Below are positions 1,459 through 13,139 of a stretch of 63,513 bases of DNA, piece after piece. This DNA comes from a virus (lineage: Duplodnaviria; Heunggongvirae; Uroviricota; Caudoviricetes): the IMG/VR virus record IMGVR_UViG_2585427777_000008, positions 1-63,513 of that record. One strand, given 5' to 3'. Position numbers and translations under genes: made by a program. Each line of letters opens with the position of its first letter. Position 1 is the stretch's first letter. The notes beneath the pieces were generated by a model, which was given only the letters and a program-made list of their open reading frames with translations, ran no database searches and was not told the origin of the DNA.

Positions 1459-1911
1459 TATTTGGTTGTAACACGGCGTATGGCACATGCGTCGTTAGCG
1501 GTCTGGTGACGTTAAAGGGGTTAACTTTTCCCCTAGCTCAGGCAACAAACCAGGTAGCCGGAATGTGCAAGCCCCGTTCATATCGTCGGACCGAGGACTC
1601 ACCATCCTGGCGATTCGGTGTGACAGCCGGAAGAGTACGGCGCACAACAGGAAAAGGCGTTTAATTAGCGTGAGCGCCGTTTCCGTTGTGGTAATTGCGG
1701 CTATGCGCTCGTGACGAAGCCATTTTCATTCACTACGTTCTGATAAGTGACGTCGCCAGGAGTGGCTAACCTGGCAGGTGGAGGCACCACCGCCACAACT
1801 CCTTTCAATTCATCATATAGCCGCTCAGGCTGTAACCCTTAATTAATACGAAGTTTCGACATCTCTATCGGTTTAACCGAGGGATGGTCGCGCGTGTAAA
1901 AAGGAGACGTT

Positions 1912-2487
1912 ATGTTAACGGCGAACGATAACGCGTATGCAGAAGCAGATCTCATATTGAGTGACTTCATCGGTCAGCGGGAACGCTGGACACAAAAGCG
2001 AGAGGAACTTTATGCCTCGTTAGTTCGCAAAGGTGTCAACATTGAAACCGCTCAAAGCGGCGATATGACGGTAGTCAGTGTTGGATTACATGGTGTGAGC
2101 GTGTCCGCAGCCAATCATGAGCCATACGTAGCGTTATCCGAGTCGATGGCAAGGCTAATTAAGTTTCTGAAGCAAACAGAAGCCAATAATGTTTTCATCG
2201 CCAAAAAGAACATCAATTTTTCTGCCGCCATGTTCTGGATGATGAAGGGGCTGGATGCCCGCCGGGCATCATGGCCTAAAGGGAGCTATTTATCGATGTT
2301 CCGTGGCAGTATTGGCAGTAAAGAAAAGCTCGTCGAATTCCTGCCTGAAGAAGCATTCGATATTGTGGAAGGGTGCGATGTGATGGTTATGCCTCGGCTG
2401 GTAATGATGAATGGAGACTTACAGGCACAGACAGACTGGTTCGCCACTGGCGTGGATATTATCGCGACTGACTGGGAGGCATTCTGA
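1912..2487 (+). CDS. hypothetical protein
   Basis: 191-aa ORF with RBS-like AAGGAG upstream; stop overlaps the start of the next ORF (ATGA at 2484-2487). Confidence 0.5.
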   Translation: MLTANDNAYAEADLILSDFIGQRERWTQKREELYASLVRKGVNIETAQSGDMTVVSVGLHGVSVSAANHEPYVALSESMARLIKFLKQTEANNVFIAKKNINFSAAMFWMMKGLDARRASWPKGSYLSMFRGSIGSKEKLVEFLPEEAFDIVEGCDVMVMPRLVMMNGDLQAQTDWFATGVDIIATDWEAF

Positions 2488-2879
2488 TGTACGAGACTAC
2501 AAAATTAAGCATTCACGAAGTCTCCAATGTGGAGTGGAATATCGTCACCTGTAAGATTGTATCGTGTAATGCTACGCGTACTGATGCAGGCCATAAGAGC
2601 ACGATAACAGGCTACATGGTAATGGCTTATAGGGGATTGAGAGTTCGCTTTATCTGGAAAGCTCGGCAATTGACACCATTCAGAGAGCCGTCAATGCCAT
2701 TAGAGGTAGAACAGGATTATTTAAGCCTGCCGGAAATAGACGGTGCAACGCTGGTGGATTCTGATGGTCGTAAGGCTGATTTTGAAGTCAGCTTAAAGGT
2801 GGCGCAGGCCGTAATTAATAACTCACGTGGTAAGTGGATCGCTAAGGTAAAACACGTCGTTCGCTTATCTCGCTGGTAG
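2487..2879 (+). CDS. hypothetical protein
   Basis: 130-aa ORF translationally coupled to the upstream ORF. Confidence 0.5.
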   Translation: MYETTKLSIHEVSNVEWNIVTCKIVSCNATRTDAGHKSTITGYMVMAYRGLRVRFIWKARQLTPFREPSMPLEVEQDYLSLPEIDGATLVDSDGRKADFEVSLKVAQAVINNSRGKWIAKVKHVVRLSRW

Positions 2880-2909
2880 TGTTAGATGAATGGAATTAAT
2901 TTTCTAATA
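2880..2909. promoter_or_regulatory. operator-like inverted pair TGTTAGA-N16-TCTAATA
   Basis: Member of the dispersed TTCTAACA motif family; sits directly upstream of the 2988 ORF. Confidence 0.4.
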
Positions 2910-2987
2910 TAACCAACTTTTTGCCAGTCTATACAGAAATAACATTCTCATTATCATCCCCTCGGTCATTTCCTGCCTGGGGGATTA

Positions 2988-3380
2988 ATGGAGCATATCA
3001 GCAGCGCAGAAATTGCGGATATCATGATTAGGGCTGACTGCTATCTGACAGTCACCGAAATCACCACTCTAGCTAAAGAAAAATATCCTCACCTTCATGT
3101 TTCACGCGTAAGTGTAACCAACATCATTCGGCATTTTGTGCGGTCAAGCCGAGCTATTTGTGAGCTTGATGATCGTGTTTACCCACGGAAATACTGGTTG
3201 CATGGCCTGAACGGATATCAGTTCAAGGTGCGCGGGCGCACGCCTGAATACGGTAGCTTACTGGTTAAAAACTGTAGCAGGAAATCAGTCGAACAGGCGC
3301 GAAAAGAGCAACGAGAGCTGGTGGACATGGCGAATAAGCTGTGGAATGCCGCCGTTAAAAAGCGTGGTGTTGCTTTATGA
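2988..3380 (+). CDS. hypothetical protein; candidate late-promoter activator by position (Lpa-like)
   Basis: 130-aa ORF immediately upstream of pacA, preceded by an operator-like motif, as for lpa in P1. Assignment is by synteny only. Confidence 0.4.
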   Translation: MEHISSAEIADIMIRADCYLTVTEITTLAKEKYPHLHVSRVSVTNIIRHFVRSSRAICELDDRVYPRKYWLHGLNGYQFKVRGRTPEYGSLLVKNCSRKSVEQARKEQRELVDMANKLWNAAVKKRGVAL

Positions 3381-4741
3381 GTCTGGTTAATTGGGAGGAG
3401 CACCGCGCCCGCTTTATAGCGTTGCGTGAAGAAAAAGGGATCACTGTAAAGGAATACTGTGAGGAGCATGGCCTTAGCTTCAATACAGCCAGAAAGCATC
3501 TCAATATGAAAAAAAATGAGGTGCGGTCGCAGGTAAAGACAACAAAAAAAAGCACCAAATCACCTGAAAAAAAACGGGCGGGAAGAGCAACAAAAAAGCT
3601 GGAAGAGGGTGCAGAAAAAACAAAATTTACAGAAATTGACAATTCGCAGGGTGCAGGTTCTTTCCGAAGTATGCCAAGAAAGAAAACTTCGGATCATGAC
3701 AATAATACCAATAATAACAATGAGATAAAAGAATCTGTCAGGAGATCATGGCGCAAAAAAATGGCAAAAATGACCCCCGCCGAAGATAAATGCGCTTCAA
3801 AAACCGAGGGATCTTCAGCAATGATCCCTGGCGGTGCTGTGCAGCGTGCCACGTTGCCCACTACGAGTGTGGCTCGCGACATGATGAAGAACGGCGCAGA
3901 AGAGCACCTGCGGTTAGCAATTCAAATGGCGCAAGAACGCGCACTTCAGTACCAAAGCATTGTTGATCAGGAGGCCGAACGCCTACAGGCGGAGATAGAC
4001 GCCCTGGGTGATCAGCAGCCAGAAGGAATGCACCCTGGGCAGCGACTGCTCGGTCTAATCAGTGACGCGGCCTACTACATGAACGATTTTATCAGTAGGT
4101 TGGCAGCGATATATCAGTCCGAACAAAAGCTGCGACAGGGTGATGAAAAACTTCGTCAGGGTGCTCGCCAGCAAGCATTCAGAGAGGCCGAGGCCAAAGA
4201 AAAACTCGAATTAGCACGCCTACAGGCCGAACAGCGTGGCAAAGAGATTGAATATCGCATTGGCGCTGACGCACGCGCAGCCAGAGTTATCGCCGCCGCT
4301 ATACGTATGCGTGAGCGCGAGGAGCTGGACGATATCGGTGTTGCTGAATACATCGAGCGTCAGGGTGTCAGTGTTCCGGCTATCCTCGCGGCGCGCGCGG
4401 CGAAAGCTATCACTCTTCTCGAGCCTCCAGTTTCTGACATCAATGATGTTGATGATGAACAGCTGGACAAAGAAGCGAAGGAGTTTGCATCGCTTCAGGC
4501 TAACCATCCGCAATGGCTGGCAGAGCGCCGGGCGGATGTGGCAACCATTGTTGAAGATCTGGGGTGCGGAGATTACGACCACAATGGCGAGCGTAAGGCT
4601 GGGGAATTCGAGGCCAACGACGAAGAGTTGGATATTGACCCTTCGGCTACGGCTGAAATTTACGGTGATTATGATGCATCAGACGCAGGATATGACGCCG
4701 GAGATGATGATATCGCGATAGAACCGCCGGAGGACGACTAA
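3377..4741 (+). CDS. pacA: terminase small subunit PacA-like
   Basis: 454 aa with an N-terminal HTH-like region, central charged coiled region and acidic C-terminal tail; overlaps pacB start (ATGA at 4738-4741). P1 PacA-like architecture. Confidence 0.7.
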   Translation: MSLVNWEEHRARFIALREEKGITVKEYCEEHGLSFNTARKHLNMKKNEVRSQVKTTKKSTKSPEKKRAGRATKKLEEGAEKTKFTEIDNSQGAGSFRSMPRKKTSDHDNNTNNNNEIKESVRRSWRKKMAKMTPAEDKCASKTEGSSAMIPGGAVQRATLPTTSVARDMMKNGAEEHLRLAIQMAQERALQYQSIVDQEAERLQAEIDALGDQQPEGMHPGQRLLGLISDAAYYMNDFISRLAAIYQSEQKLRQGDEKLRQGARQQAFREAEAKEKLELARLQAEQRGKEIEYRIGADARAARVIAAAIRMREREELDDIGVAEYIERQGVSVPAILAARAAKAITLLEPPVSDINDVDDEQLDKEAKEFASLQANHPQWLAERRADVATIVEDLGCGDYDHNGERKAGEFEANDEELDIDPSATAEIYGDYDASDAGYDAGDDDIAIEPPEDD

Positions 4742-6249
4742 TGGCTGGTGGGCGCAAGATTAAATGCGTCACCAGCGATCCACGCTGGCGCGATATGGTA
4801 ATCAAATACCGCTACAACTTTACCCAGGCTGTTGTTGATATTTTCGGGATGTTTCCCTCCCACCAGCAGCAGGAGATTATCCAGTCCGTACAGCAAAAAG
4901 GGAGCAGAACCACTGTTACTTCTGGTCACGGTACAGGGAAATCGTCGTTAACGGCTATGTTGTTGCTGATTTATTTGATTCTGTTCCCCGATGCCCGTGT
5001 CATCATTGTTGCTAACAAGATAGGCCAGGTTAAAACAGGCGTATTCAAATACGTTAAACAGTATTGGGCGAATGCAGTTAAGCGTCACGGATGGTTACAG
5101 ACCTATTTTGTCCTGTCTGACACCATGTTTTATGAACGTTCCCGCAAAGGGATCTGGGAAGTTCTCTGCAAAGGTTATCGACTCGGTAACGAAGAAGCAC
5201 TGGCGGGGGGGCACGCGGCACATTTGCTTCTAATTCTGGATGAAGCATCAGGTATATCTGATAAAGCGATCGGCGTAATGACTGGCGCTCTGACTGAAGA
5301 AGATAACCGAATGTTGATGCTATCCCAGCCAACAAGGCCAAGTGGTTATTTCTACGATTCGCACCATTCTCAAGCTAAAACCCCAGACAACCCGAAAGGG
5401 ATCTGGACAGCAATTGTTCTTAACTCAGAAGAATCACCGTTCGTCACACCACAATTCATCAGGCAGAAACTCCTGGAATATGGCGGGCGAGATTCTATTG
5501 AGTACATGGTAAAGGTGCTTGGTCAGTTCCCTAGGGAGATTAACGGCTATTTGCTTGGTCGTGATGAATGCGATCGCGCTGCGCGGCGCAAGGTGTTGTT
5601 GGAGAAAAACTGGGGATGGGTGGCTACTGCTGACGTTGGTAACGGGCGAGACAAGTCAGTTCTTAATATCTGTAAAGTGTCTGGTCACCGGGAAAAGCGG
5701 CGTGTTGTTAACTTTAAGGTAATGGAAATGCCAGGGACTATGGACCCGCTGGCTTTTGCTGACTTTATATACAACGAATGCACGCCGGATAAATACCCGA
5801 ATATTACAATCGCGGTTGACGCAGACGGTTTTGGTTCAGATACCTGTGCGCAGCTGGTGCGCCGTGGGGCTAATCCGGTACGGATTCGGTGGGGGAAACC
5901 CATGTTTTCGAACAAAGACAAGGAGCGTTTTGTTAACCAGCGTGCCTACGCAAATATTATGGCTCGTGATGCCATAAAGTCAGGTCGTATGCGAATAGAC
6001 AGCGACCCTAAAACGGCAGAGCAAGCGTCAAAAATCCCCTTTTTACTTAATGAAGAAGGGAAGATGGCGATGATGCGCAAGGAGCACATGCGGCAAAAGC
6101 TGAACATCAAATCACCTGACCGATGGGATACCTACTGCTTTACAATGCTGGTGGACTATGTTCCTGCTAATGAAGATATCGGCGCTGAAATGGCTACCTT
6201 CCGCGATCAGGTTCTTGCAGATGTAGAAATGCCAGATCTGGATATTTGA
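4741..6249 (+). CDS. pacB: terminase large subunit PacB-like
   Basis: 502 aa with Walker A (SGHGTGKSS), Walker B (LLILDEASG) and a C-terminal Asp-rich nuclease-like region (VDADGFG). Confidence 0.8.
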   Translation: MAGGRKIKCVTSDPRWRDMVIKYRYNFTQAVVDIFGMFPSHQQQEIIQSVQQKGSRTTVTSGHGTGKSSLTAMLLLIYLILFPDARVIIVANKIGQVKTGVFKYVKQYWANAVKRHGWLQTYFVLSDTMFYERSRKGIWEVLCKGYRLGNEEALAGGHAAHLLLILDEASGISDKAIGVMTGALTEEDNRMLMLSQPTRPSGYFYDSHHSQAKTPDNPKGIWTAIVLNSEESPFVTPQFIRQKLLEYGGRDSIEYMVKVLGQFPREINGYLLGRDECDRAARRKVLLEKNWGWVATADVGNGRDKSVLNICKVSGHREKRRVVNFKVMEMPGTMDPLAFADFIYNECTPDKYPNITIAVDADGFGSDTCAQLVRRGANPVRIRWGKPMFSNKDKERFVNQRAYANIMARDAIKSGRMRIDSDPKTAEQASKIPFLLNEEGKMAMMRKEHMRQKLNIKSPDRWDTYCFTMLVDYVPANEDIGAEMATFRDQVLADVEMPDLDI

Positions 6250-6294
6250 CATCCTCCACGCCCTGAAGGACGGGGTTTTACGGCGCACCGGATA

Positions 6295-6316
6295 AAGCCC
6301 CGGCAATGCGGGGCTT
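6295..6316. terminator. GC-rich hairpin between convergent pacB and c1-like genes
   Basis: AAGCCCCG-GCAATG-CGGGGCTT stem-loop in the 70-bp gap between two convergent stops; T-run is weak. Confidence 0.4.
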
Positions 6317-6320
6317 GTGA

Positions 6321-7358
6321 TTACCAGAGTTTAGCGGCGTGCTGTGTTTGGGAGAAAGTGAACCCGTAACGTTCTTCTATGGTTTTACCGTATCTTTTCC
6401 GCGCGTCTGTCAGTTTTATGCCTGTCAGGTCATCTCCGGATGTCATCATTACGTCTAACAACTCCAGATCCATTTTATTCAGTCTCGCCATCGCTTCGCG
6501 TGCTGTCTGTATTTTACGCTCAATGATATGGCGAATAGCCGGATCGGCTTCCTCAAGCATTTTGGCTGATTTGTTCTTTAAGCTCTCATTGCGGATGTCG
6601 ATGTTTCGCAAGATGTATGACTTCGCAACATAGCTTGGTTGGTGTTTCTCCAGATCGCGAACGCGATAGAGACTAAAGTCACCAAGCAGGCCGCAAGGTA
6701 TCGACTCAACCCCAGAATAAATAGTAATGCTGCGACGTTCGCCGACATTATTAACAACGGGCACTGTGGTGTTCGGAAGTTTTGCGAACACTAAGGCTCC
6801 GTGTGCGCCTACCCTGAATCGTGACAGAGCATTGCTGCCTTCAATGTTTGTTGTAAGCACTACATCTGTGTATCCATCTTTGCGCGCCCGGTAAACTTCC
6901 CCTTCAGGTTCTGATGCGAAAAAACGGCGCTCTTCTTCAAGTGCACCAACAATCTGCGAAAATATCTTGTTTTTCAGGCTTTTCTTTATAATTGCATCAT
7001 ATTTTTTGAGCAGATTTTCGCGCGTAAATGAGCGGGTGGTGGTCGCGCTTTGCACAACAATATGCGTGCTTTGATTTGTGTCCTCGATAATGAATGGGAT
7101 CGGAGAATATACAGACTCAACAATGTTAGACGCTTTGCCGTCAGCGTTACGGCACAAGTCAACAAAGGCTTTCCATTCTGTGAGGCACTTTTCAGCTTCT
7201 TCTAGCACATTCTGATCATGTGTTAGTGCAACATGGCGGAATTCCTCGCCGGCATAACTGGTATCATGGAAAACAGAGTTTGCGACCACCAGCTCTTTCC
7301 ACCGTGCAGCGGTTTGCAGGAACCGTTTGTACTCTTTCTCGATCGACTTCTTACTCAT
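6321..7358 (-). CDS. putative C1-like immunity repressor (assignment by position)
   Basis: 345-aa ORF between pacB and the rox site, transcribed away from rox as c1 is in P1; operator-like motifs lie in its upstream region. No motif-level confirmation. Confidence 0.4.
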   Translation of the reverse strand: MSKKSIEKEYKRFLQTAARWKELVVANSVFHDTSYAGEEFRHVALTHDQNVLEEAEKCLTEWKAFVDLCRNADGKASNIVESVYSPIPFIIEDTNQSTHIVVQSATTTRSFTRENLLKKYDAIIKKSLKNKIFSQIVGALEEERRFFASEPEGEVYRARKDGYTDVVLTTNIEGSNALSRFRVGAHGALVFAKLPNTTVPVVNNVGERRSITIYSGVESIPCGLLGDFSLYRVRDLEKHQPSYVAKSYILRNIDIRNESLKNKSAKMLEEADPAIRHIIERKIQTAREAMARLNKMDLELLDVMMTSGDDLTGIKLTDARKRYGKTIEERYGFTFSQTQHAAKLW

Positions 7359-7559: not shown

Positions 7560-7591
7560 TAACTTTAAATAATTGGCATTATTTAAAGTTA
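7560..7591. other. rox: rox-type site-specific recombination site (Dre target)
   Basis: TAACTTTAAATAATTGGCATTATTTAAAGTTA: perfect 14-bp inverted arms around a 4-bp core; its reverse complement is the rox sequence described for phage D6. Lies 150 bp upstream of the recombinase gene. Confidence 0.85.
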
Positions 7592-7743
7592 GGCTATAAT
7601 CATGTGTAGATGAACAGTGTTGACATCACTGAAAATACGTGCCTCGAATCAAAGGCTTGTATTTTGAAAATTAACTTATAGCTACCCTGTCATTTTTATA
7701 TTTTTCGCGTAGCGTCATCTGTATATAGAGGTCAAATAGTTTC

Positions 7744-8772
7744 ATGAGTGAATTAATTATCTCTGGCAGTTCCGGTGGTTTTCTGCGCAACATTGGCAAA
7801 GAGTACCAGGAAGCCGCAGAAAACTTTATGCGGTTCATGAATGACCAGGGAGCTTATGCGCCGAATACTCTGCGCGACCTCCGTTTGGTGTTTCATTCCT
7901 GGGCGCGCTGGTGTCACGCTCGCCAGCTTGCCTGGTTTCCGATCTCACCAGAAATGGCCCGCGAGTATTTTCTTCAGCTGCATGATGCCGATCTGGCTTC
8001 GACCACCATTGATAAGCACTACGCCATGCTGAACATGCTGCTTTCGCATTGTGGCCTTCCACCACTTTCGGATGATAAAAGTGTTTCTCTGGCTATGCGG
8101 CGCATCCGGCGCGAAGCGGCAACTGAAAAAGGCGAACGAACAGGCCAGGCTATACCGCTGCGGTGGGACGATCTGAAACTGCTCGACGTCCTGCTGTCCA
8201 GGTCAGAACGGCTGGTGGATCTGCGCAACCGGGCTTTTCTCTTTGTTGCATACAATACGCTGATGCGTATGTCGGAAATCTCGCGTATTCGTGTAGGAGA
8301 TCTGGACCAAACAGGTGACACTGTCACGCTACATATTTCACACACGAAGACAATAACGACCGCCGCCGGGCTTGATAAGGTGCTTTCCCGTCGCACTACC
8401 GCTGTGCTGAATGACTGGCTGGATGTTTCCGGGCTTCGCGAACATCCTGACGCAGTGCTGTTCCCGCCGATACACCGTAGCAATAAGGCCAGGATCACGA
8501 CAACGCCCCTTACTGCACCTGCAATGGAGAAAATATTCAGCGACGCCTGGGTGTTGCTGAATAAAAGAGATGCTACGCCAAACAAAGGAAGATACCGGAC
8601 GTGGACCGGGCATAGTGCACGCGTCGGGGCCGCTATTGATATGGCTGAAAAGCAGGTGTCTATGGTGGAGATCATGCAGGAAGGAACCTGGAAGAAACCG
8701 GAAACACTTATGCGGTATCTTCGCCGTGGCGGCGTGTCTGTGGGGGCTAATAGCCGCCTGATGGACTCGTAA
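7744..8772 (+). CDS. dre: Cre-family tyrosine recombinase, Dre-like
   Basis: 342 aa colinear with Cre: conserved SLAMRRIRRE, AYNTLMRMSEI, GHSARVGAAIDMA and C-terminal Tyr region (ETLMRYLRR). Adjacent rox site. Confidence 0.9.
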   Translation: MSELIISGSSGGFLRNIGKEYQEAAENFMRFMNDQGAYAPNTLRDLRLVFHSWARWCHARQLAWFPISPEMAREYFLQLHDADLASTTIDKHYAMLNMLLSHCGLPPLSDDKSVSLAMRRIRREAATEKGERTGQAIPLRWDDLKLLDVLLSRSERLVDLRNRAFLFVAYNTLMRMSEISRIRVGDLDQTGDTVTLHISHTKTITTAAGLDKVLSRRTTAVLNDWLDVSGLREHPDAVLFPPIHRSNKARITTTPLTAPAMEKIFSDAWVLLNKRDATPNKGRYRTWTGHSARVGAAIDMAEKQVSMVEIMQEGTWKKPETLMRYLRRGGVSVGANSRLMDS

Positions 8773-8778
8773 ATTAAA

Positions 8779-8788
8779 TTTCTAACAC
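8779..8788. promoter_or_regulatory. operator-like motif TTTCTAACAC
   Basis: Immediately after the dre stop and upstream of the 8846 ORF. Confidence 0.35.
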
Positions 8789-8845
8789 ATCTTTTTAGAT
8801 TAACGCCTTTGCTGTAAAGTACCCTCGCCTATTTAGGAGGGTGCT

Positions 8846-9190
8846 TTGCAGAGTCAAATCACGGAATCAAGACGCTTCAAGGTGGATGGTTACACCGTAA
8901 CCTTCGCCGCTGGTGTTAAGAACAGTCATGCTGTCGTTGTGTTCGGCATCATGACCGGGCTTGAGGCCGTCCCTGTGTTTACCCTCGAAAAAAACTGGCG
9001 AAATCTGGAGGAAGCAGAAAGCTACGTCCGGAAAGTAACCATCATTGCCGCCGAAAAACTCCTGGCCCACTATCAGGAAAATTATCGCACTATGGTCGAG
9101 AAGATTAATCTCGCTTTCACTCGCCCCACTACCGGCTTTATTGCACCGGATACTAATGCAGGTCGATATCCGGCAAGGGGGCGTCGGTGA
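8846..9190 (+). CDS. hypothetical protein
   Basis: 114-aa ORF preceded by RBS-like GGAGG; overlaps the next ORF start. Confidence 0.4.
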   Translation: MQSQITESRRFKVDGYTVTFAAGVKNSHAVVVFGIMTGLEAVPVFTLEKNWRNLEEAESYVRKVTIIAAEKLLAHYQENYRTMVEKINLAFTRPTTGFIAPDTNAGRYPARGRR

Positions 9191-9663
9191 AAACTTATTA
9201 CCCATCTCTGAATTGTTACCCGTCTTCCTATCCAGAATTGTCCGGGAAGCTGTTAGCTCTATTAGCTAAAGCACCTACGGAATGGTTTAAGCCAGTCGTT
9301 ATCAATCCACACTTCCTGGATTACGGATCTGTTCGCACTCGTAACGAACTCAAAAACCTACTGGCGCATGGATTCATTCGACACCGTGCCGGGAAAGGCT
9401 ATCAGTTAGCGATTGCGCCAGACGAGGCCGTGCGGCTATTCGCATATCGTGACAGCCAGACAAAAGCTCGGGTAATAGCTCAAATACTTCATAACGGCAG
9501 CACCTATGCCCGCCAGTTTGGCGGCGACACGTCGCAGTTCTTGCGGGCGGTGCGATCGCTGGAGGAGCAAGGGGTTATTGAAAGTTCCTGTCTTCCTGTT
9601 CCTACCGTTCCACATATCAAACGTCGGGTTTACACCTTCACGCAGAGAGCTAAAAAACAATGA
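9187..9663 (+). CDS. hypothetical protein
   Basis: 158-aa ORF coupled to the flanking ORFs (overlapping stops and starts). Confidence 0.45.
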   Translation: MKTYYPSLNCYPSSYPELSGKLLALLAKAPTEWFKPVVINPHFLDYGSVRTRNELKNLLAHGFIRHRAGKGYQLAIAPDEAVRLFAYRDSQTKARVIAQILHNGSTYARQFGGDTSQFLRAVRSLEEQGVIESSCLPVPTVPHIKRRVYTFTQRAKKQ

Positions 9664-10154
9664 TTTACGTAAAAGTGAAACGCCTACATCCGGCAGCAAA
9701 ACTTCCAGCTTATGCCACCTCCGGATCGGCGGCGATGGATTTTGAGGCTGTTGAAATAAAACCATGCGTCGATAGCAATGGTGCAATTTCCTCAAGCTGG
9801 TGGGTGTATACCGGACTGGCTATGGAGATCCCGCCCGGCTGGTGTCTGAAACTCTATCCGCGATCCGGATTGGGCTGCAAAAAACATACTCGCCTGGCTA
9901 ACTGCGTAGGAATTATCGACTCCGATTATCGCGGTGAAATCATGGCAAAACTGATTACTGATCCCGGCGGGGAAGGCGTTTGTCTCAAGCCTGGAATGGC
10001 TGTCATGCAAGGCATTTTTGAGCGTGTTGAACAAGTCTCACTAGTCGAGGTTGAGGAACTCAACGAAACGGAACGTGGTGCTGGTGGCTTTGGTAGCACA
10101 TCGGAAGGCCACTTTGAAATTAAGCGTTCACCGCTTCAGTACGAAAAGTTATAA
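9660..10154 (+). CDS. dut: dUTP diphosphatase (dUTPase)
   Basis: 164 aa with trimeric-dUTPase motifs GIIDSDYRGEI and C-terminal RGAGGFGSTS. Confidence 0.85.
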   Translation: MIYVKVKRLHPAAKLPAYATSGSAAMDFEAVEIKPCVDSNGAISSSWWVYTGLAMEIPPGWCLKLYPRSGLGCKKHTRLANCVGIIDSDYRGEIMAKLITDPGGEGVCLKPGMAVMQGIFERVEQVSLVEVEELNETERGAGGFGSTSEGHFEIKRSPLQYEKL

Positions 10155-10168
10155 GCAGAGAAAAGACT

Positions 10169-10846
10169 ATGAATAACATGGCAACGAAAGAGCTTTTTAA
10201 GTTCCTTCCCAAATACAAAGCTCACAAAAACGTTAGTGCATCGAAAATCAAAAATGTTGTTATTTTCGGAGTAACTGATGCCCCACTTTGGGGCTGCATC
10301 GAACTCGTTGAACCAAAAGGGGCAACAGTTTGTGTTGACGCAATGTTTTTACAAAAACACCGACCAAAAACTGGCGGGTATCTGATCGTTTATGAAAACG
10401 GTTATCTGTTCTATGCCCCGGAGAAACCATTTGAGGAACGCTATGGCCTGGTTAACGACGCCTCCAAAAATGGAACCACGGTCATCATTACGGATGACAA
10501 CGGCGTGATGATTAATCTTACCGGGAGCGTAACTATTTCTGCTGGTGGCATCACCACCCAGCAAGAAGAAATCGACCTTGAAGCAGCCGACTTTTCTGAC
10601 GCGCTGATGTGGCTGAAGGATGGCAAGAAAGTTGCTCGACGCGGGTGGAACGGCGAAAACCAATTCTGCTGGCTGGTTCCTGAAGGACAGTACCCGGCAC
10701 GAATGGAAGCCATTAAGGGATATTTCCCCGGCGACCTCGTTCCGTATGGTGCTTATTTCGCCTTAAAAAATGCACAAGGTGTAGTTGTTCCGTGGGTTCC
10801 TTCTGTAGGCGACTTACTGGCATGTGACTGGTTTGTAGTGGAGTGA
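10169..10846 (+). CDS. hypothetical protein with DUF2829-like C-terminal region
   Basis: 225 aa; C-terminal segment (ALMWLKDGKKVARRGWNG...GAYFALKNAQGVVVPWVPS) resembles a phage-associated domain of unknown function. Confidence 0.45.
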   Translation: MNNMATKELFKFLPKYKAHKNVSASKIKNVVIFGVTDAPLWGCIELVEPKGATVCVDAMFLQKHRPKTGGYLIVYENGYLFYAPEKPFEERYGLVNDASKNGTTVIITDDNGVMINLTGSVTISAGGITTQQEEIDLEAADFSDALMWLKDGKKVARRGWNGENQFCWLVPEGQYPARMEAIKGYFPGDLVPYGAYFALKNAQGVVVPWVPSVGDLLACDWFVVE

Positions 10847-10852
10847 TTTGAC

Positions 10853-11620
10853 ATGGAAAGCACCAAAACAATTCAATACCGCTTGCGTAATGGCCTGCTG
10901 GTGGCTGTTAACGCCGACATGTCACTGCCGTTTGACACGATTGAACGCACTATCATGACGTATCTCGGCTTTAATGAAGAGCTGAATGAAGAGCATGGCG
11001 TAGCTATATGGAGTGATGCAGACAGCGGCGTTCGTCGTTACATCACCGCCAGGGGCAAAGACTACTCTCTGGAAGAACTGTTTACCCTTGCGCAGTCTTT
11101 CGAATGTGTAGCATTAGACCTGTTTAATGATCCTGCTATAGCGCAACGACTTATACGCGAGCTTGGGCTATCCGTTACACCAATTATCTTTAAAAATGGC
11201 AGCCTGACTGGCACATGGCGCGTAGAACGCATCTCAAACTACCTTCCATATAACCGACAGTTAAATGGAGTAATCTCCGGCGTTAATCAGCCCGTAGCGT
11301 GTGAAAATGTAAACCTAGTTGTCGCTGTTTTGGCAACCGCATGTCGTGTTATCGGTTTGGCTAAACAGGCATTTATTCATTTCCCAAATGGTGCAGAAGG
11401 TAGCGCAGAGATTATCGCGTGTGATTTCGAATTTACCTGGATGCTACGCGAATATCTGGACCAAACAGTATTCCGTGCCGAAGAACTGGATATGTATATC
11501 ACGTCAACGATTCCAGACGATGTGCGAGCTGAAGCAATCGCTACAGCCAGGGCGAAATGCCGTGCGGCAATTGCAGAACAGGCCAAAGAAAAAGTTAAGG
11601 AAGTGGCAGATGGCGACTAA
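10853..11620 (+). CDS. hypothetical protein
   Basis: 255-aa ORF; its stop overlaps the start of the PacB paralog. Confidence 0.5.
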   Translation: MESTKTIQYRLRNGLLVAVNADMSLPFDTIERTIMTYLGFNEELNEEHGVAIWSDADSGVRRYITARGKDYSLEELFTLAQSFECVALDLFNDPAIAQRLIRELGLSVTPIIFKNGSLTGTWRVERISNYLPYNRQLNGVISGVNQPVACENVNLVVAVLATACRVIGLAKQAFIHFPNGAEGSAEIIACDFEFTWMLREYLDQTVFRAEELDMYITSTIPDDVRAEAIATARAKCRAAIAEQAKEKVKEVADGD

Positions 11621-12704
11621 GAGCAATATTTATAAAGATCCGCGCTGGCTGTCGCTGGTGGAGAAATATAAAGACAATTGGGTACTGGCAGCAAAAGAAT
11701 TGTTTGATATTGATTTAAGCCACCAGCAACAACAAATTGTTGAAGCTATACAGCCCAATAATGCAAAAGCTACTGTCACCACTCCGTATGGGATCGGACG
11801 ACCGCAAGTGCTTGCTGTTATTAGTACCCTTTATACGATTATGTATCCTGATTCCCGGACAGTAATTGTTTATCCAAAATCAAATGTTTGCAAAAGAGGA
11901 ATTGTTGCATATGTGTGGCAATGTTGGGAGGCATTGCTGAAAAAACAACCTTTTATCATTGAGTATTTTAAGGTCGGTGATAGCGGTCTGATGTTCAATG
12001 AATTTTGGGGAATGTGCTTTTGTAACTACCGCCTTAACTATGAAGATAGCATTGCAGGTCACTACGCCGACCATCTTTTATTCATTATTGTGGATTCCGC
12101 ACATATCAGCGATCGGGCATACAGCATTGTGTGGGCAAGCATGACTAGTGGTGATTCACGCATATTGCTCACTTCAATTCCGTCACCAGAGGAAATAGGC
12201 TTTTTTTATGATTCACATCATGGACGTGCTTTAGCTGAAGATAATCCGAGTGGTGTATATAAAGCCATTAAGCTGAGTGCGGAGGATTCACCATTTATTA
12301 CCCAAGAATATCTTGATCATTTTGCCGAAAGGTATGGCGGGCGAAATAGTGATGACTATCGTCGTATGATTCTTGGTGAGTTCCCTGGTATTAGGGAGGC
12401 TGTTCTTGAATCAGATATGCCGAAGACAATGCGCTTTTCGATGCCTGATGGTAGTGAATGGACAATGCCATTACGAGTGATAGCCCGGCATCATGCGCAG
12501 CACCACGCCAAAAAACATGGCGTCACGACATTAGAATGGTTGAAATCGCACACTATTCCACTCTTCACTGCAGATCACAATGCTATCGTTGAGTGGGCAA
12601 AAACAATTCCGTGGGAGCATGTCGCTGAATATGCTCACATGCTAAAACCGCCGAAAGACAGGCACGAAATTAGCTGGCTGACAGCCGAAAAAATCATTGA
12701 ATGA
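11610..12704 (+). CDS. PacB-like paralog with degenerate ATPase motifs and no nuclease domain
   Basis: Start taken at the ATG at 11610 (MATKSNIYKDPRWL), not the overlapping upstream ATG. Aligns with the PacB N-terminal half (DPRW, SHQQQ, YFYDSHH) but Walker A is PYGIGRP and Walker B is LFIIVDSAH; the C-terminus is unrelated to the PacB nuclease region. Confidence 0.6.
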   Translation: MATKSNIYKDPRWLSLVEKYKDNWVLAAKELFDIDLSHQQQQIVEAIQPNNAKATVTTPYGIGRPQVLAVISTLYTIMYPDSRTVIVYPKSNVCKRGIVAYVWQCWEALLKKQPFIIEYFKVGDSGLMFNEFWGMCFCNYRLNYEDSIAGHYADHLLFIIVDSAHISDRAYSIVWASMTSGDSRILLTSIPSPEEIGFFYDSHHGRALAEDNPSGVYKAIKLSAEDSPFITQEYLDHFAERYGGRNSDDYRRMILGEFPGIREAVLESDMPKTMRFSMPDGSEWTMPLRVIARHHAQHHAKKHGVTTLEWLKSHTIPLFTADHNAIVEWAKTIPWEHVAEYAHMLKPPKDRHEISWLTAEKIIE

Positions 12705-12749
12705 TATCAACAAAAAGCCCGCCTGGTCTGGCGGGCTTCTTTATGCGCC

Positions 12750-13139
12750 TTAAATCACAGGTCTATAATCAAACTCCCCACTTCGGGCATCATTAATGAC
12801 ATGAGTGATCACACCAAAAACAGCATTACTGCCCGTGCATCCATCGTCATCTACTGGTAACGCCTCTTTCTTCCCGGTGCTTAAATCCTCCAGGTGCTGG
12901 CGCGGATATTTCCTGTATCTCTTTATGCGATATTCACCCTCCATAGCGCATATAAGCAGTGAACCATCAACCGGAGTAAGTGAGGAATCAACCACCAGCA
13001 AAGCACCTTGCAATATTCCCTCACGGTGATGGCTGTCTGCCGCCCGCATGAAGTAGGTCGCGGAAGGATGTCTGATTAGTTGCTGATCAAGAGAAATGCG
13101 GCTCTCTGCATAATCCGCCGCAGGAGAAGGGAAGCCCAT
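12750..13139 (-). CDS. humD: UmuD'-like SOS mutagenesis protein (HumD-like, S24 peptidase fold)
   Basis: 129 aa starting GFPSPAADY, colinear with the processed UmuD' form (HPSATYF...VFGVITHVI). Confidence 0.85.
   Translation of the reverse strand: MGFPSPAADYAESRISLDQQLIRHPSATYFMRAADSHHREGILQGALLVVDSSLTPVDGSLLICAMEGEYRIKRYRKYPRQHLEDLSTGKKEALPVDDDGCTGSNAVFGVITHVINDARSGEFDYRPVI

Follow-up and report, generated by a model that had tools for sequence, protein, structure and literature searches.

A probably ATPase-dead paralog of the large terminase PacB with an exchangeable terminase-like domain as a candidate binding-only mimic in D6- and P1-type phage-plasmids

Besides its resident large terminase PacB, the window analyzed here (the whole stretch of 63,513 nucleotides, IMG/VR record IMGVR_UViG_2585427777_000008) encodes a PacB paralog which is, judged by its motifs, ATPase-dead. 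This gene is under purifying selection, and alleles of its terminase-like domain are swapped as a cassette, independently of the near-invariant resident PacA and PacB. We tentatively regard its product as a binding-only terminase mimic within an accessory conflict module, a reading to which we give somewhat less than an even chance. In this scenario, an ancient, monophyletic and degenerate paralog of the PacB ATPase domain, fused to a constant phage domain of ~100 aa, would be made together with IsaA from overlapping frames, as part of a block in the dre/dut operon of D6-type and the ssb operon of P1-type phage-plasmids, and would act by binding, without ATP hydrolysis or DNA cutting. The features of the locus are as follows.

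7573 to 7600, + strand: promoter-like site upstream of dre (cre-like); 11/12 hexamer matches, a consensus match only
10169 to 10846, + strand: Tad2-like (DUF2829) gene, which opens the three-gene block (Pfam PF11195, E 1.8e-22)
10853 to 11620, + strand: isaA homolog, 255 aa, upstream partner of the paralog (ORF call, BLAST, phrog_2326)
11597 to 11603, + strand: Shine-Dalgarno sequence AAGGAAG of the paralog, within the coding sequence of isaA (read from the sequence)
11610 to 12704, + strand: paralog (pseudo-terminase) gene, 364 aa (ORF as described earlier)
11610 to 11620, + strand: 11-nt overlap of paralog start and isaA stop, ATGGCGACTAA (sequence)
11610 to 12389, + strand: terminase-ATPase-like domain, residues 1-260, with degenerate catalysis motifs; variable allelic cassette (BLASTP, AF2, Foldseek)
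11781 to 11804, + strand: degenerate Walker A TPYGIGRP, residues 58-65 (aligned to PacB SGHGTGKS)
12075 to 12098, + strand: degenerate Walker B LLFIIVDS, residues 156-163 (aligned to PacB)
12393 to 12701, + strand: C-terminal domain of ~100 aa, the constant part of the paralog (allele comparison, free-standing homologs)
12716 to 12745, no strand given: GC-rich hairpin with a T-run after it, in the gap between paralog and convergent humD (terminator-like site)

At the level of sequence, the similarity of the paralog to PacB is far above chance. Residues 7-259 align with residues 10-264 of the window's PacB (BLASTP, 96/258 identities, 37%, E 8e-62), and the PacB proteins of D6, P1, P7, SJ46 and RCS47 are matched at E 1e-45 to 1e-48 (tblastn). 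In a single-chain AF2 model, residues 1-260 (pLDDT 80-95) are predicted to form an ASCE ATPase domain with the terminase fold, and all of the top 30 Foldseek matches to this model are TerL ATPase domains, the best being those of P74-26, T4 gp17, Sf6, HK97 and D6E (E ~1e-7). The relationship to the N-terminal half of PacB, as claimed in the preliminary description, is therefore a real homology by pairwise alignment and by fold. Over its full length the paralog matches PHROG 5902 (E 1.1e-164, residues 4-363 on profile positions 2-358 of 359), which is a phage protein family without assigned function; a search for solved structures matching the paralog or IsaA by sequence found none. Some records annotate the paralog as “terminase large subunit,” a label that can mislead packaging-type prediction and phage taxonomy.

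The catalytic motifs, however, are gone. PYGIGRP (residues 59-65) stands in place of the PacB Walker A motif GHGTGKS, and the position of the Walker A lysine is taken by R, E, Q, H, M, C, T, I or N across 14 paralogs, whereas it is K in 13 of 13 active terminases. Walker B reads IIVDSAH instead of LILDEAS, with D167 replaced by V161 and the catalytic E168 by D162, and nowhere in the paralog clade is the acidic pair conserved; Q, T and R of the C-motif (SQPTR) are lost as well. The loss of Walker A and of the Walker B glutamate, already pointed out for the window's protein, extends to the whole family: its members have lost 24 positions that active terminases conserve, among them the complete Walker A, Walker B and C-motif, and have retained 31 fold positions. 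Kept in common with PacB are the N-terminal helices, the QQ motif, the P-loop glycines, FYDSHH, EDSP and YGG..Y. One allele class features a lysine shifted by one position together with a glutamate at the catalytic position (GIGQKT ... IVTEAA). The 14 dead paralogs form one clade, apart from the 13 active PacB-type terminases.

Moreover, the PacB-type RNase-H-like nuclease half is absent, and the paralog stops ~100 aa past its ATPase domain. The earlier statement that the nuclease region is lacking holds to this extent, but the region is not simply missing, as a different, independent domain of ~100 aa takes its place: residues ~262-364 have no similarity to the C-terminal half of PacB (hhalign probability 0.2%), and the tail gives no match to a Pfam terminase C-domain. 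This C-terminal domain is 96-99% identical among alleles whose N-domains share 50%, and free-standing homologs of ~100 aa exist. It corresponds to gene_35 of Cronobacter phage JK004, two genes downstream of a DnaB-type helicase, and to the C-terminus of phrog_17928 proteins in Xanthomonas phages, encoded beside recombinase, exonuclease and SSB genes. Profile searches of Pfam, NCBIfam and the PDB gave no known domain, the only match being to phrog_17928/5902, and the AF2 model of this part is poor (pLDDT below 55).

The paralog is the last gene of a seven-gene plus-strand array including dre, dut, the Tad2-like gene and isaA. It adjoins no small terminase gene and no packaging or head module; the resident pacA-pacB pair lies at 3377-6249, 5 kb upstream, with PacB at 4741-6249. 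Its ATG at 11610 is located within isaA, whose TAA occupies 11618-11620, and follows the Shine-Dalgarno sequence at a spacing of 6 nt. Overlaps of isaA stop and paralog start recur in three diverged lineages, with 11 nt in the window and 14 nt and 8 nt in the others, and their sequences differ. The coupling to an upstream “unknown” protein of 255 aa was accordingly described correctly with respect to the conserved overlap, but the partner has a name: it is a homolog of the uncharacterized IsaA of P1 (48% identity, E 3e-89), similar over its full length and matching phrog_2326 at E 1.3e-133. Its fold matches, to nuclease-like and dsRBD-like folds, are weak. Two further candidate relationships were rejected, as IsaA shows no BLASTP similarity to PacA, which would have made the pair a duplicated pacAB, and P1 isaB shows no similarity to the paralog, of which it could have been an IS1-cut remnant. 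IsaA and the paralog are no obligate unit, since roughly two thirds of the IsaA-positive plasmids carry IsaA without the paralog (472 vs 163), and isaA of P1 is non-essential by CRISPRi (PMC10695390). The isaA region of P1-type plasmids is also an insertion hotspot for resistance genes.

Comparison of related plasmids demonstrated how freely the terminase-like domain moves. Three N-domain allele classes, only 50-75% identical to each other, are distributed over four plasmids whose PacB proteins are 99.4-100% and whose PacA proteins are 98.9-99.8% identical. At the nucleotide level this results in a mosaic of isaA (98-100% identity), N-domain (43-77%) and C-domain (98%), and the identity trough between the window and a sister plasmid spans 11577-12375. 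Allele swapping alone is no proof of diversifying selection, because mosaicism is common to these plasmids; for example, PacB shows a dS of 0.5 when the window is compared with a plasmid that has a 98-100% identical isaA. The paralog is under purifying selection with dN/dS values of 0.09-0.5 overall (0.09 for window vs L010; 0.46 for the N-domain in L009 vs L011), below 1 in every comparison, and PacB has values of 0.02-0.03. That it is a functionless remnant of a pacB duplicate, hitch-hiking with isaA, is extremely improbable and largely refuted already. The missing catalytic motifs, the dispensability of the gene and its deletion in some lineages would fit such a remnant, but the ORF of 364-366 codons is intact across lineages 47-53% identical in the terminase-like domain, and conservation extends to the retained fold positions and to the overlap of isaA stop and paralog start. 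Of 5,426 complete E. coli genomes, 117 contain a full-length copy, as do 163 plasmids of PLSDB; a 100% identical copy is carried by the D6-type phage-plasmid NZ_CP034790. The view of a maintained gene instead of a decaying pseudogene, put forward earlier, is upheld by these data.

The gene is nevertheless optional: the paralog is absent from the type phages P1, D6 and SJ46 and from most P1/D6-type plasmids, and in the D6-like plasmid NZ_CP086473 it is reduced to a 3' remnant. This bears on the idea of a regulator or safety lock of the phage's own pacase, which would titrate PacA or cap PacB rings against premature pac cleavage of the plasmid prophage, or time packaging. Resident PacB is the closest relative of the paralog by sequence and its N-terminal ~45 residues are conserved, and non-catalytic paralogs act as regulatory subunits in other ring ATPases. 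However, a regulatory role in the phage's own packaging, one of the roles suggested in the preliminary description, is very unlikely, because the type phages are viable without the paralog, and its N-domains differ strongly beside 99-100% identical PacA and PacB, so that it is no co-evolving partner of the resident packaging enzyme. Furthermore, pacAB is late and Lpa-dependent, while the paralog lies far off in an early or constitutive accessory operon.

The Tad2-like gene, isaA and the paralog form a mobile block, which occupies two different backbone positions, after dut in D6-likes and after ssb in a P1-like plasmid. In both backbones the Tad2-like gene is directly upstream of the isaA-paralog pair, and its alleles are shuffled as well (59-99% identity). 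In D6-likes, dre and dut belong to the same array as the block, and humD and hot come after it; in P1-likes the Dar/Ddr anti-restriction operon adjoins it. More distant relatives show other arrangements: no IsaA is present upstream of the 444-aa dead paralog P0028, a dead paralog on a distant phage-plasmid contig overlaps a gene for a Ref-like RecA-dependent nuclease (PF16786, E 2e-34), and of two short dead paralogs, P0026 was not found in genome contigs but has loci in viral contigs, and P0023 was not found in viral contigs.

With regard to expression, the only sigma-70-like site on the plus strand before 12678 is the one upstream of dre, and the hairpin behind the paralog is likely the end of the operon. 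P1-likes have a match to the C1 operator with one mismatch just upstream of ssb, where the P1 annotation places Ossb, and no plus-strand promoter-like or terminator-like site from ssb to the end of the paralog, which would suggest that the block is expressed early in these phage-plasmids. The window itself contains no match to the P1 C1 operator within three mismatches, and D6-type immunity presumably differs from the C1 type of P1. This context, i.e., the Tad2-like neighbor and the apparently C1-operator-controlled ssb operon in P1-likes, points to a putative accessory conflict module and not to a packaging operon. Tad2 anti-Thoeris genes are reported for 93% of D6-type and 56% of P1-type phage-plasmids (preprint 10.1101/2025.09.12.675607).

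Within the reading as a binding-only mimic, we infer a terminase look-alike that would be produced early in the lytic cycle, whose variable domain may engage a factor that contacts TerL ATPase domains and differs between hosts or competitors, with the constant C-terminal domain and IsaA supplying the invariant part of the function. The most likely purpose, although itself doubtful, would be counter-defense by a decoy or blocker for host sensors of large terminases of the Avs type. Avs2 binds a large terminase, as shown by pull-down, with the contact predicted to run via the ATPase domain, and also senses a small phage protein with a weak TerL-ATPase-like fold (PMC11564622). A more specific version, which we consider rather unlikely, is that of an early decoy from the same operon as Tad2 that could occupy Avs-type sensor domains before the real PacB is present, while C-domain and IsaA would block receptor oligomerization; in that case, the differences among the exchanged N-domain alleles would be the trace of an arms race with receptor variants. 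Avs3, for its part, reportedly contacts both the ATPase and the nuclease active site of the terminase (Gao et al. 2022), and the paralog would be a poor decoy for it because both sites are lost. A terminase look-alike could also trigger such sensors instead of blocking them. Also at odds with the mimic reading are the many plasmids that have IsaA but no paralog, the dN/dS values, none of which reaches 1, and the lack of a match in PADLOC.

An alternative, and an unlikely one, is interference with the packaging of competitors, the main suggestion of the preliminary description. Here, the dead ATPase domain would co-assemble with or sequester PacA/PacB-type subunits of superinfecting P1/D6-type phages or satellites, and stall their packaging, or would be the variable sensor in an abortive-infection pair whose constant effector consists of IsaA and the C-terminal domain. 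Consistent with this, the paralog retains the fold of PacB as well as its N-terminal helices and, in the lid region, the motifs FYDSHH, EDSP and YGG..Y. The combination of a variable N-domain with a constant C-domain and IsaA is reminiscent of how many defense proteins arrange sensor and effector, abortive-infection systems are frequent on P1-type plasmids, and in P1-like plasmids the isaA region is known as a hotspot of variation (PMC9603915, PMC6906374). However, PacB of rival P1/D6-type phages is 91-100% identical to the resident PacB, so interference would poison the carrier's own packaging too. Moreover, the P1-like block should be off in the lysogen, when exclusion is needed, because it lies behind the C1 operator; IsaA often occurs alone, and neither IsaA nor the paralog nor the Tad2-like protein has a match in PADLOC-DB v2 at E up to 0.1.

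The neighborhoods described above may also evoke a factor in replication, recombination or end handling, although we deem this quite improbable. The dead translocase fold and the C-terminal domain would then bind DNA or replisome and recombination proteins, e.g., to protect or process the termini of linear DNA after its injection and before Cre/Dre cyclize it, or to modulate RecA/RecBCD-dependent steps. Helicase, recombinase, exonuclease and SSB genes near homologs of the C-terminal domain, the position after ssb or among dre, dut, humD and hot, the overlap with the Ref-like nuclease gene and the nuclease-like and dsRBD-like matches of IsaA are all in line with this. Early phage regions, however, mix replication and anti-defense genes, which makes evidence from neighborhood weak; it is hard to see why N-domain alleles would be swapped if DNA or a conserved host protein were the target; and no DNA-binding motif was found, the model of the C-terminal domain being of low confidence.

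The large terminases rank among the phage proteins with the strongest conservation, and bacterial pattern-recognition immunity is directed at them. A catalytically dead copy of the terminase motor domain that has long persisted under selection, and whose enzyme-like part is exchanged between phage-plasmids that are identical otherwise, points to a use of the terminase fold outside packaging, for which we found no literature; likewise, a search for papers on a dead terminase paralog, the function of IsaA or a terminase decoy returned none. If the paralog is a decoy or blocker, it would offer a testable route to how phages evade or exploit core-protein recognition, and the proposal, if true, would assign a role to the isaA region of P1-type plasmids, long without explanation. 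If the early Avs decoy is real, it would represent the first case of a virus with a “self-mimic” of a conserved immune trigger.

Among known systems, PacB of P1/D6-type phages shares the ATPase-domain fold (37% identity over 258 aa), but has the Walker A Lys/Ser, Walker B Asp-Glu, C-motif Q/T/R and RNase-H-like nuclease that the paralog is without; the latter lies away from pacA, is optional, evolves under ~10-fold weaker constraint and has alleles that vary independently of PacA/PacB. Of solved structures, the TerL ATPase domains of P74-26 (4ZNL/7KS4), T4 gp17 (2O0H) and Sf6 gp2 (4IDH) match the model of residues 1-260 best (Foldseek E 1e-7 to 2e-6, probability 1.0), yet these are active motors with intact nucleotide sites and 13-18% identity to the paralog. 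Satellite hijackers, i.e., the small-terminase homologs of SaPI/PICI, Ppi and Rpp, are likewise accessory and non-essential; they are related to terminase subunits or bind them, and redirect or block packaging through protein binding. In contrast to the paralog, a dead large-subunit ATPase domain of a helper-type phage-plasmid, these satellite-encoded proteins originate from the small subunit or act on it. The variable region isaA-IS1-isaB (“RD-2”) of P1-like plasmids has in common with the locus an IsaA homolog upstream of the paralog, and in IS1-free P1-like phages ssb-isaA-paralog-hxr occupies its exact place; classic P1 differs in having IS1 and the unrelated isaB where the paralog sits, and the function of IsaA is unassigned. 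Finally, Ksap2 of phage Bas60, which is sensed by KpAvs2 (PMC11564622), is an accessory protein without assigned function, with a reportedly weak TerL-ATPase-like fold and a tie to terminase-sensing immunity; it is a defense trigger and not a shown inhibitor, and its likeness to the paralog is by analogy only.

The window represents a D6-type phage-plasmid of the P1 family, in which seven tightly packed plus-strand genes (7744-12704) encode, in this order, Dre, two small ORFs, Dut, a Tad2-like protein (DUF2829), the 255-aa protein IsaA and the 364-aa terminase paralog studied here. The features needed in the following are:

75-1079, Tn3-family transposase DDE domain (PF01526, E 2e-128; profile positions 79-389 only)
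1912-2487, second Tad2-like-domain protein (PF11195, E 1.6e-9), upstream of the lpa/pacA region
3377-4741, pacA
4741-6249, pacB
6321-7358, minus strand, C1-like repressor gene
7573-7600, single promoter-like site ahead of the seven-gene array
7744-8772, plus strand, Dre/Cre-type recombinase gene (dre), product 100% identical to the phage D6 recombinase
10169-10846, plus strand, Tad2-like gene (DUF2829, PF11195) with an N-terminal extension, directly upstream of isaA
10853-11620, plus strand, isaA
11610-12704, plus strand, paralog gene
12716-12745, hairpin and T-run at the array end

The element thus has two Tad2-domain genes. As its profile match is only partial, the transposase gene is either truncated or interrupted by the edge of the window; its surroundings have 66% GC, foreign to the backbone of ~47% GC, and are probably a transposon insertion. 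Every sister D6-type plasmid inspected has a phd-doc addiction module in the interval from the paralog to humD (phage D6 also carries pdcA at this position); in the window this module is missing (12705-12750) and humD directly abuts the paralog terminator.

The homology to PacB proposed in the preliminary description was borne out, as residues 7-259 of the paralog align with the window's own PacB (37% identity, E 8e-62). Tblastn matched PacB of D6, P1, P7, SJ46 and RCS47 (E 1e-45 to 1e-48), and PHROGs assigned the protein to phrog_5902 (unknown function, E 1e-164), with the large terminase family phrog_2 as second match (E 9e-9). The AlphaFold2 model, confident over residues 1-260 (pLDDT 80-95), found only large-terminase ATPase domains as best PDB matches (P74-26, T4 gp17, Sf6, HK97 and D6E; E 1e-7 to 1e-5). 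Both motif losses were likewise as first described, with PYGIGRP at the place of the PacB Walker A motif GHGTGKS, and IIVDSAH versus LILDEAS at Walker B (Asp to Val, catalytic Glu to Asp). A role as active terminase is ruled out by the evidence.

Among 1.84 billion representative proteins, searched exhaustively with HMMER, 767 relatives were identified, the nearest being other degenerate-motif proteins, followed by PacB-type terminases of ~500 aa. When 14 dead paralogs were aligned with 13 active PacB-type terminases, G-x-G-T-G-K-[ST] and h-h-h-h-D-E were kept in 13/13 active enzymes and 0/14 paralogs, which carry R, E, Q, H, M, C, T, I or N at the Walker A lysine position. Altogether, the paralogs have lost 24 positions that the active enzymes conserve, with the complete Walker A and Walker B motifs and the C-motif Q/T/R among them, and have retained 31 structural-looking positions, including the QQ motif, the P-loop glycines, FYDSHH, EDSP and YGG..Y. 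The dead paralogs group in one clade of a neighbour-joining tree built from the ATPase-domain region, which speaks for duplication and inactivation in a single ancient event rather than for repeated decay. By sequence, we regard the paralog as a pseudo-enzyme offshoot of PacB-type large terminases, although residual nucleotide binding may persist in one allele class (GIGQKT ... IVTEAA), in which a lysine is off by one residue and a glutamate occupies the catalytic position.

Databases label the family "hypothetical protein" or, wrongly, "terminase large subunit", the latter e.g., in MH422554.1 (locus positions 4995-6089) and protein P0002, and one metagenomic entry was extended to 438 aa by reading across the isaA overlap. 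Both the label and the extension are annotation errors, which could mislead packaging-type calls. A literature search found no paper on a catalytically dead terminase paralog, IsaA function or a terminase decoy; new in the paralog are its domain partner and its unusual population behaviour.

The description as nuclease-less holds insofar as the PacB nuclease region is missing; the C-terminal third, however, is not a mere truncation, but a separate domain (residues ~262-364). This domain recurs as free-standing proteins of ~100 aa in metagenomes, as gene_35 of the P1-like Cronobacter phage JK004 (locus positions 4001-4297), two genes after a DnaB-type helicase, and as C-terminus of the 471-aa phrog_17928 proteins of Xanthomonas CP2-like phages (Tenjo, locus positions 1894-3309), whose genes adjoin those for recombinase, exonuclease and SSB. 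Its alignment contains invariant residues including D20, P27, T55, P57, F59, W69, W75 and W96; searches of Pfam, NCBIfam and PDB gave no match, and AlphaFold modelled this part poorly. It is an independent phage domain. These genomic contexts would suit a function in replication, recombination or at DNA ends, as would the surroundings of a dead paralog on a distant 86-kb phage-plasmid-like contig (IMGVR_UViG_3300045988_166783, locus positions 5330-6792), but we consider such a role quite unlikely. The paralog on that contig has 263 aa, lacks the C-terminal domain and overlaps the end of a gene for a Ref-like RecA-dependent nuclease (PF16786, E 2e-34); 2.7 kb upstream of it, a dUTPase-like ORF is immediately followed by a remote IsaA homolog (hhalign 98.4%).

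The upstream partner, previously taken as unknown, turned out to be a homolog of P1 IsaA (48% identity, E 3e-89; phrog_2326). The coupled gene arrangement noted earlier is real, the paralog ATG at 11610 sitting 11 nt within isaA, after an AAGGAAG ribosome-binding site. Overlaps of different sequence occur in three lineages (11 nt for the window type, 14 nt for the type of the related plasmid loci L009 and L011, 8 nt for P1-likes, where the paralog starts with GTG), which argues for coupled, roughly equimolar synthesis of both proteins. IsaA is often alone, with 472 plasmids carrying it against 163 for the paralog; the full-length paralog directly follows IsaA in every locus inspected. CRISPRi showed that P1 does not require isaA (PMC10695390). 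The start annotated for P1 isaA (NC_005856, locus positions 7570-8532, 320 aa) is probably too far upstream, since similarity to all other IsaA proteins begins at residue ~60.

Full-length copies of the paralog (coverage at least 80%) were present on 163 PLSDB plasmids and in 117 of 5,426 complete E. coli genomes, where 191 of 193 matching places lay on plasmids, and copies also occur in three P1-like phage records. By Nei-Gojobori, dN/dS was 0.09 between the window's paralog and a 97.5%-identical allele (L010), 0.46 for the terminase-like N-domain (residues 1-260) between the L009 and L011 alleles (whole-protein identity 81%), 0.02–0.03 for PacB of the same plasmid pairs and 0.10–0.14 for IsaA. 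The paralog is under purifying selection, with constraint far weaker than on the real terminase. As already held in the preliminary description, a decaying pseudogene is thus ruled out, and a functionless remnant is scarcely conceivable.

The gene is optional: phage D6 continues from isaA directly to pdcA-doc-phd, classic P1 reads isaA-IS1-isaB (isaB being unrelated to the paralog) and SJ46 ssb-Tad2-like-isaA-hxr. In the D6-type plasmid NZ_CP086473.1, all that remains of the paralog gene behind isaA is its last ~55 nt (locus positions 2501-2555), with doc-phd coming next, which looks like a deletion scar. The Tad2-like–isaA–paralog block is mobile, standing after dut in D6-types and after ssb in P1-types; the Tad2-like gene moves with isaA and the paralog between these backbones, its alleles being likewise shuffled (59–99% amino acid identity among plasmids with nearly identical flanking genes), and some P1-types have isaA–paralog without it. 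Moreover, the terminase-like domain is an exchangeable cassette: between the window and a sister plasmid, nucleotide identity is 98–100% in isaA, drops to 43–77% over 11577-12375 and returns to 98% in the C-terminal domain. Among six plasmids compared, four have PacB 99.4–100% and PacA 98.9–99.8% identical, yet carry three N-domain allele classes of only 50–75% mutual identity, the C-terminal domain being 96–99% identical throughout. This uncoupling means that the paralog does not co-evolve with resident PacA or PacB. Together with the optional nature of the gene, it largely rules out the previously suggested regulatory role in the phage's own packaging, and a lock on its own pacase appears very unlikely.

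One P1-type plasmid that carries the full block has a match to the C1 operator (ATTGCTCTAATTAATTT, 1 mismatch) immediately ahead of ssb, and no plus-strand promoter-like or terminator-like site was found from ssb to the paralog end; according to the P1 record annotation, the C1 operator controls the ssb promoters. Judging from this arrangement, the P1-type block should be kept repressed during lysogeny and come on early once the phage infects or is induced. In the D6-type backbone of the window, where no P1-type C1 operator is present, the block shares one array with dre. A role in blocking the packaging of rivals, or as a sensor-effector pair in defence, is unlikely, as rival and resident PacB are nearly identical and the block would be silent in P1-type lysogens.

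Tentatively, we read the paralog as belonging to an accessory conflict module that would work by binding only, in which a variable terminase-shaped recognition part would be joined to a constant part (C-terminal domain and IsaA). For this module, we favour counter-defence over prophage-encoded exclusion because of the immediate, conserved linkage of the block to the Tad2-like gene, the Dar/Ddr anti-restriction operon adjoining it in P1-types and the early C1-controlled operon. Terminase-sensing Avs receptors are an evident candidate target. That the paralog serves as their decoy is, however, rather doubtful, as a terminase look-alike could trigger the receptor instead of blocking it, and Avs3 reportedly reads, according to its original structure paper, the ATPase and nuclease active sites of the terminase, both of which the paralog lacks. 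Among known systems, Tad2 has been described as an anti-Thoeris protein of 93% of D6-type phage-plasmids and 56% of P1-type ones (preprint 10.1101/2025.09.12.675607), and KpAvs2 binds a large terminase through its ATPase domain, as found by prediction and pull-down (PMC11564622).
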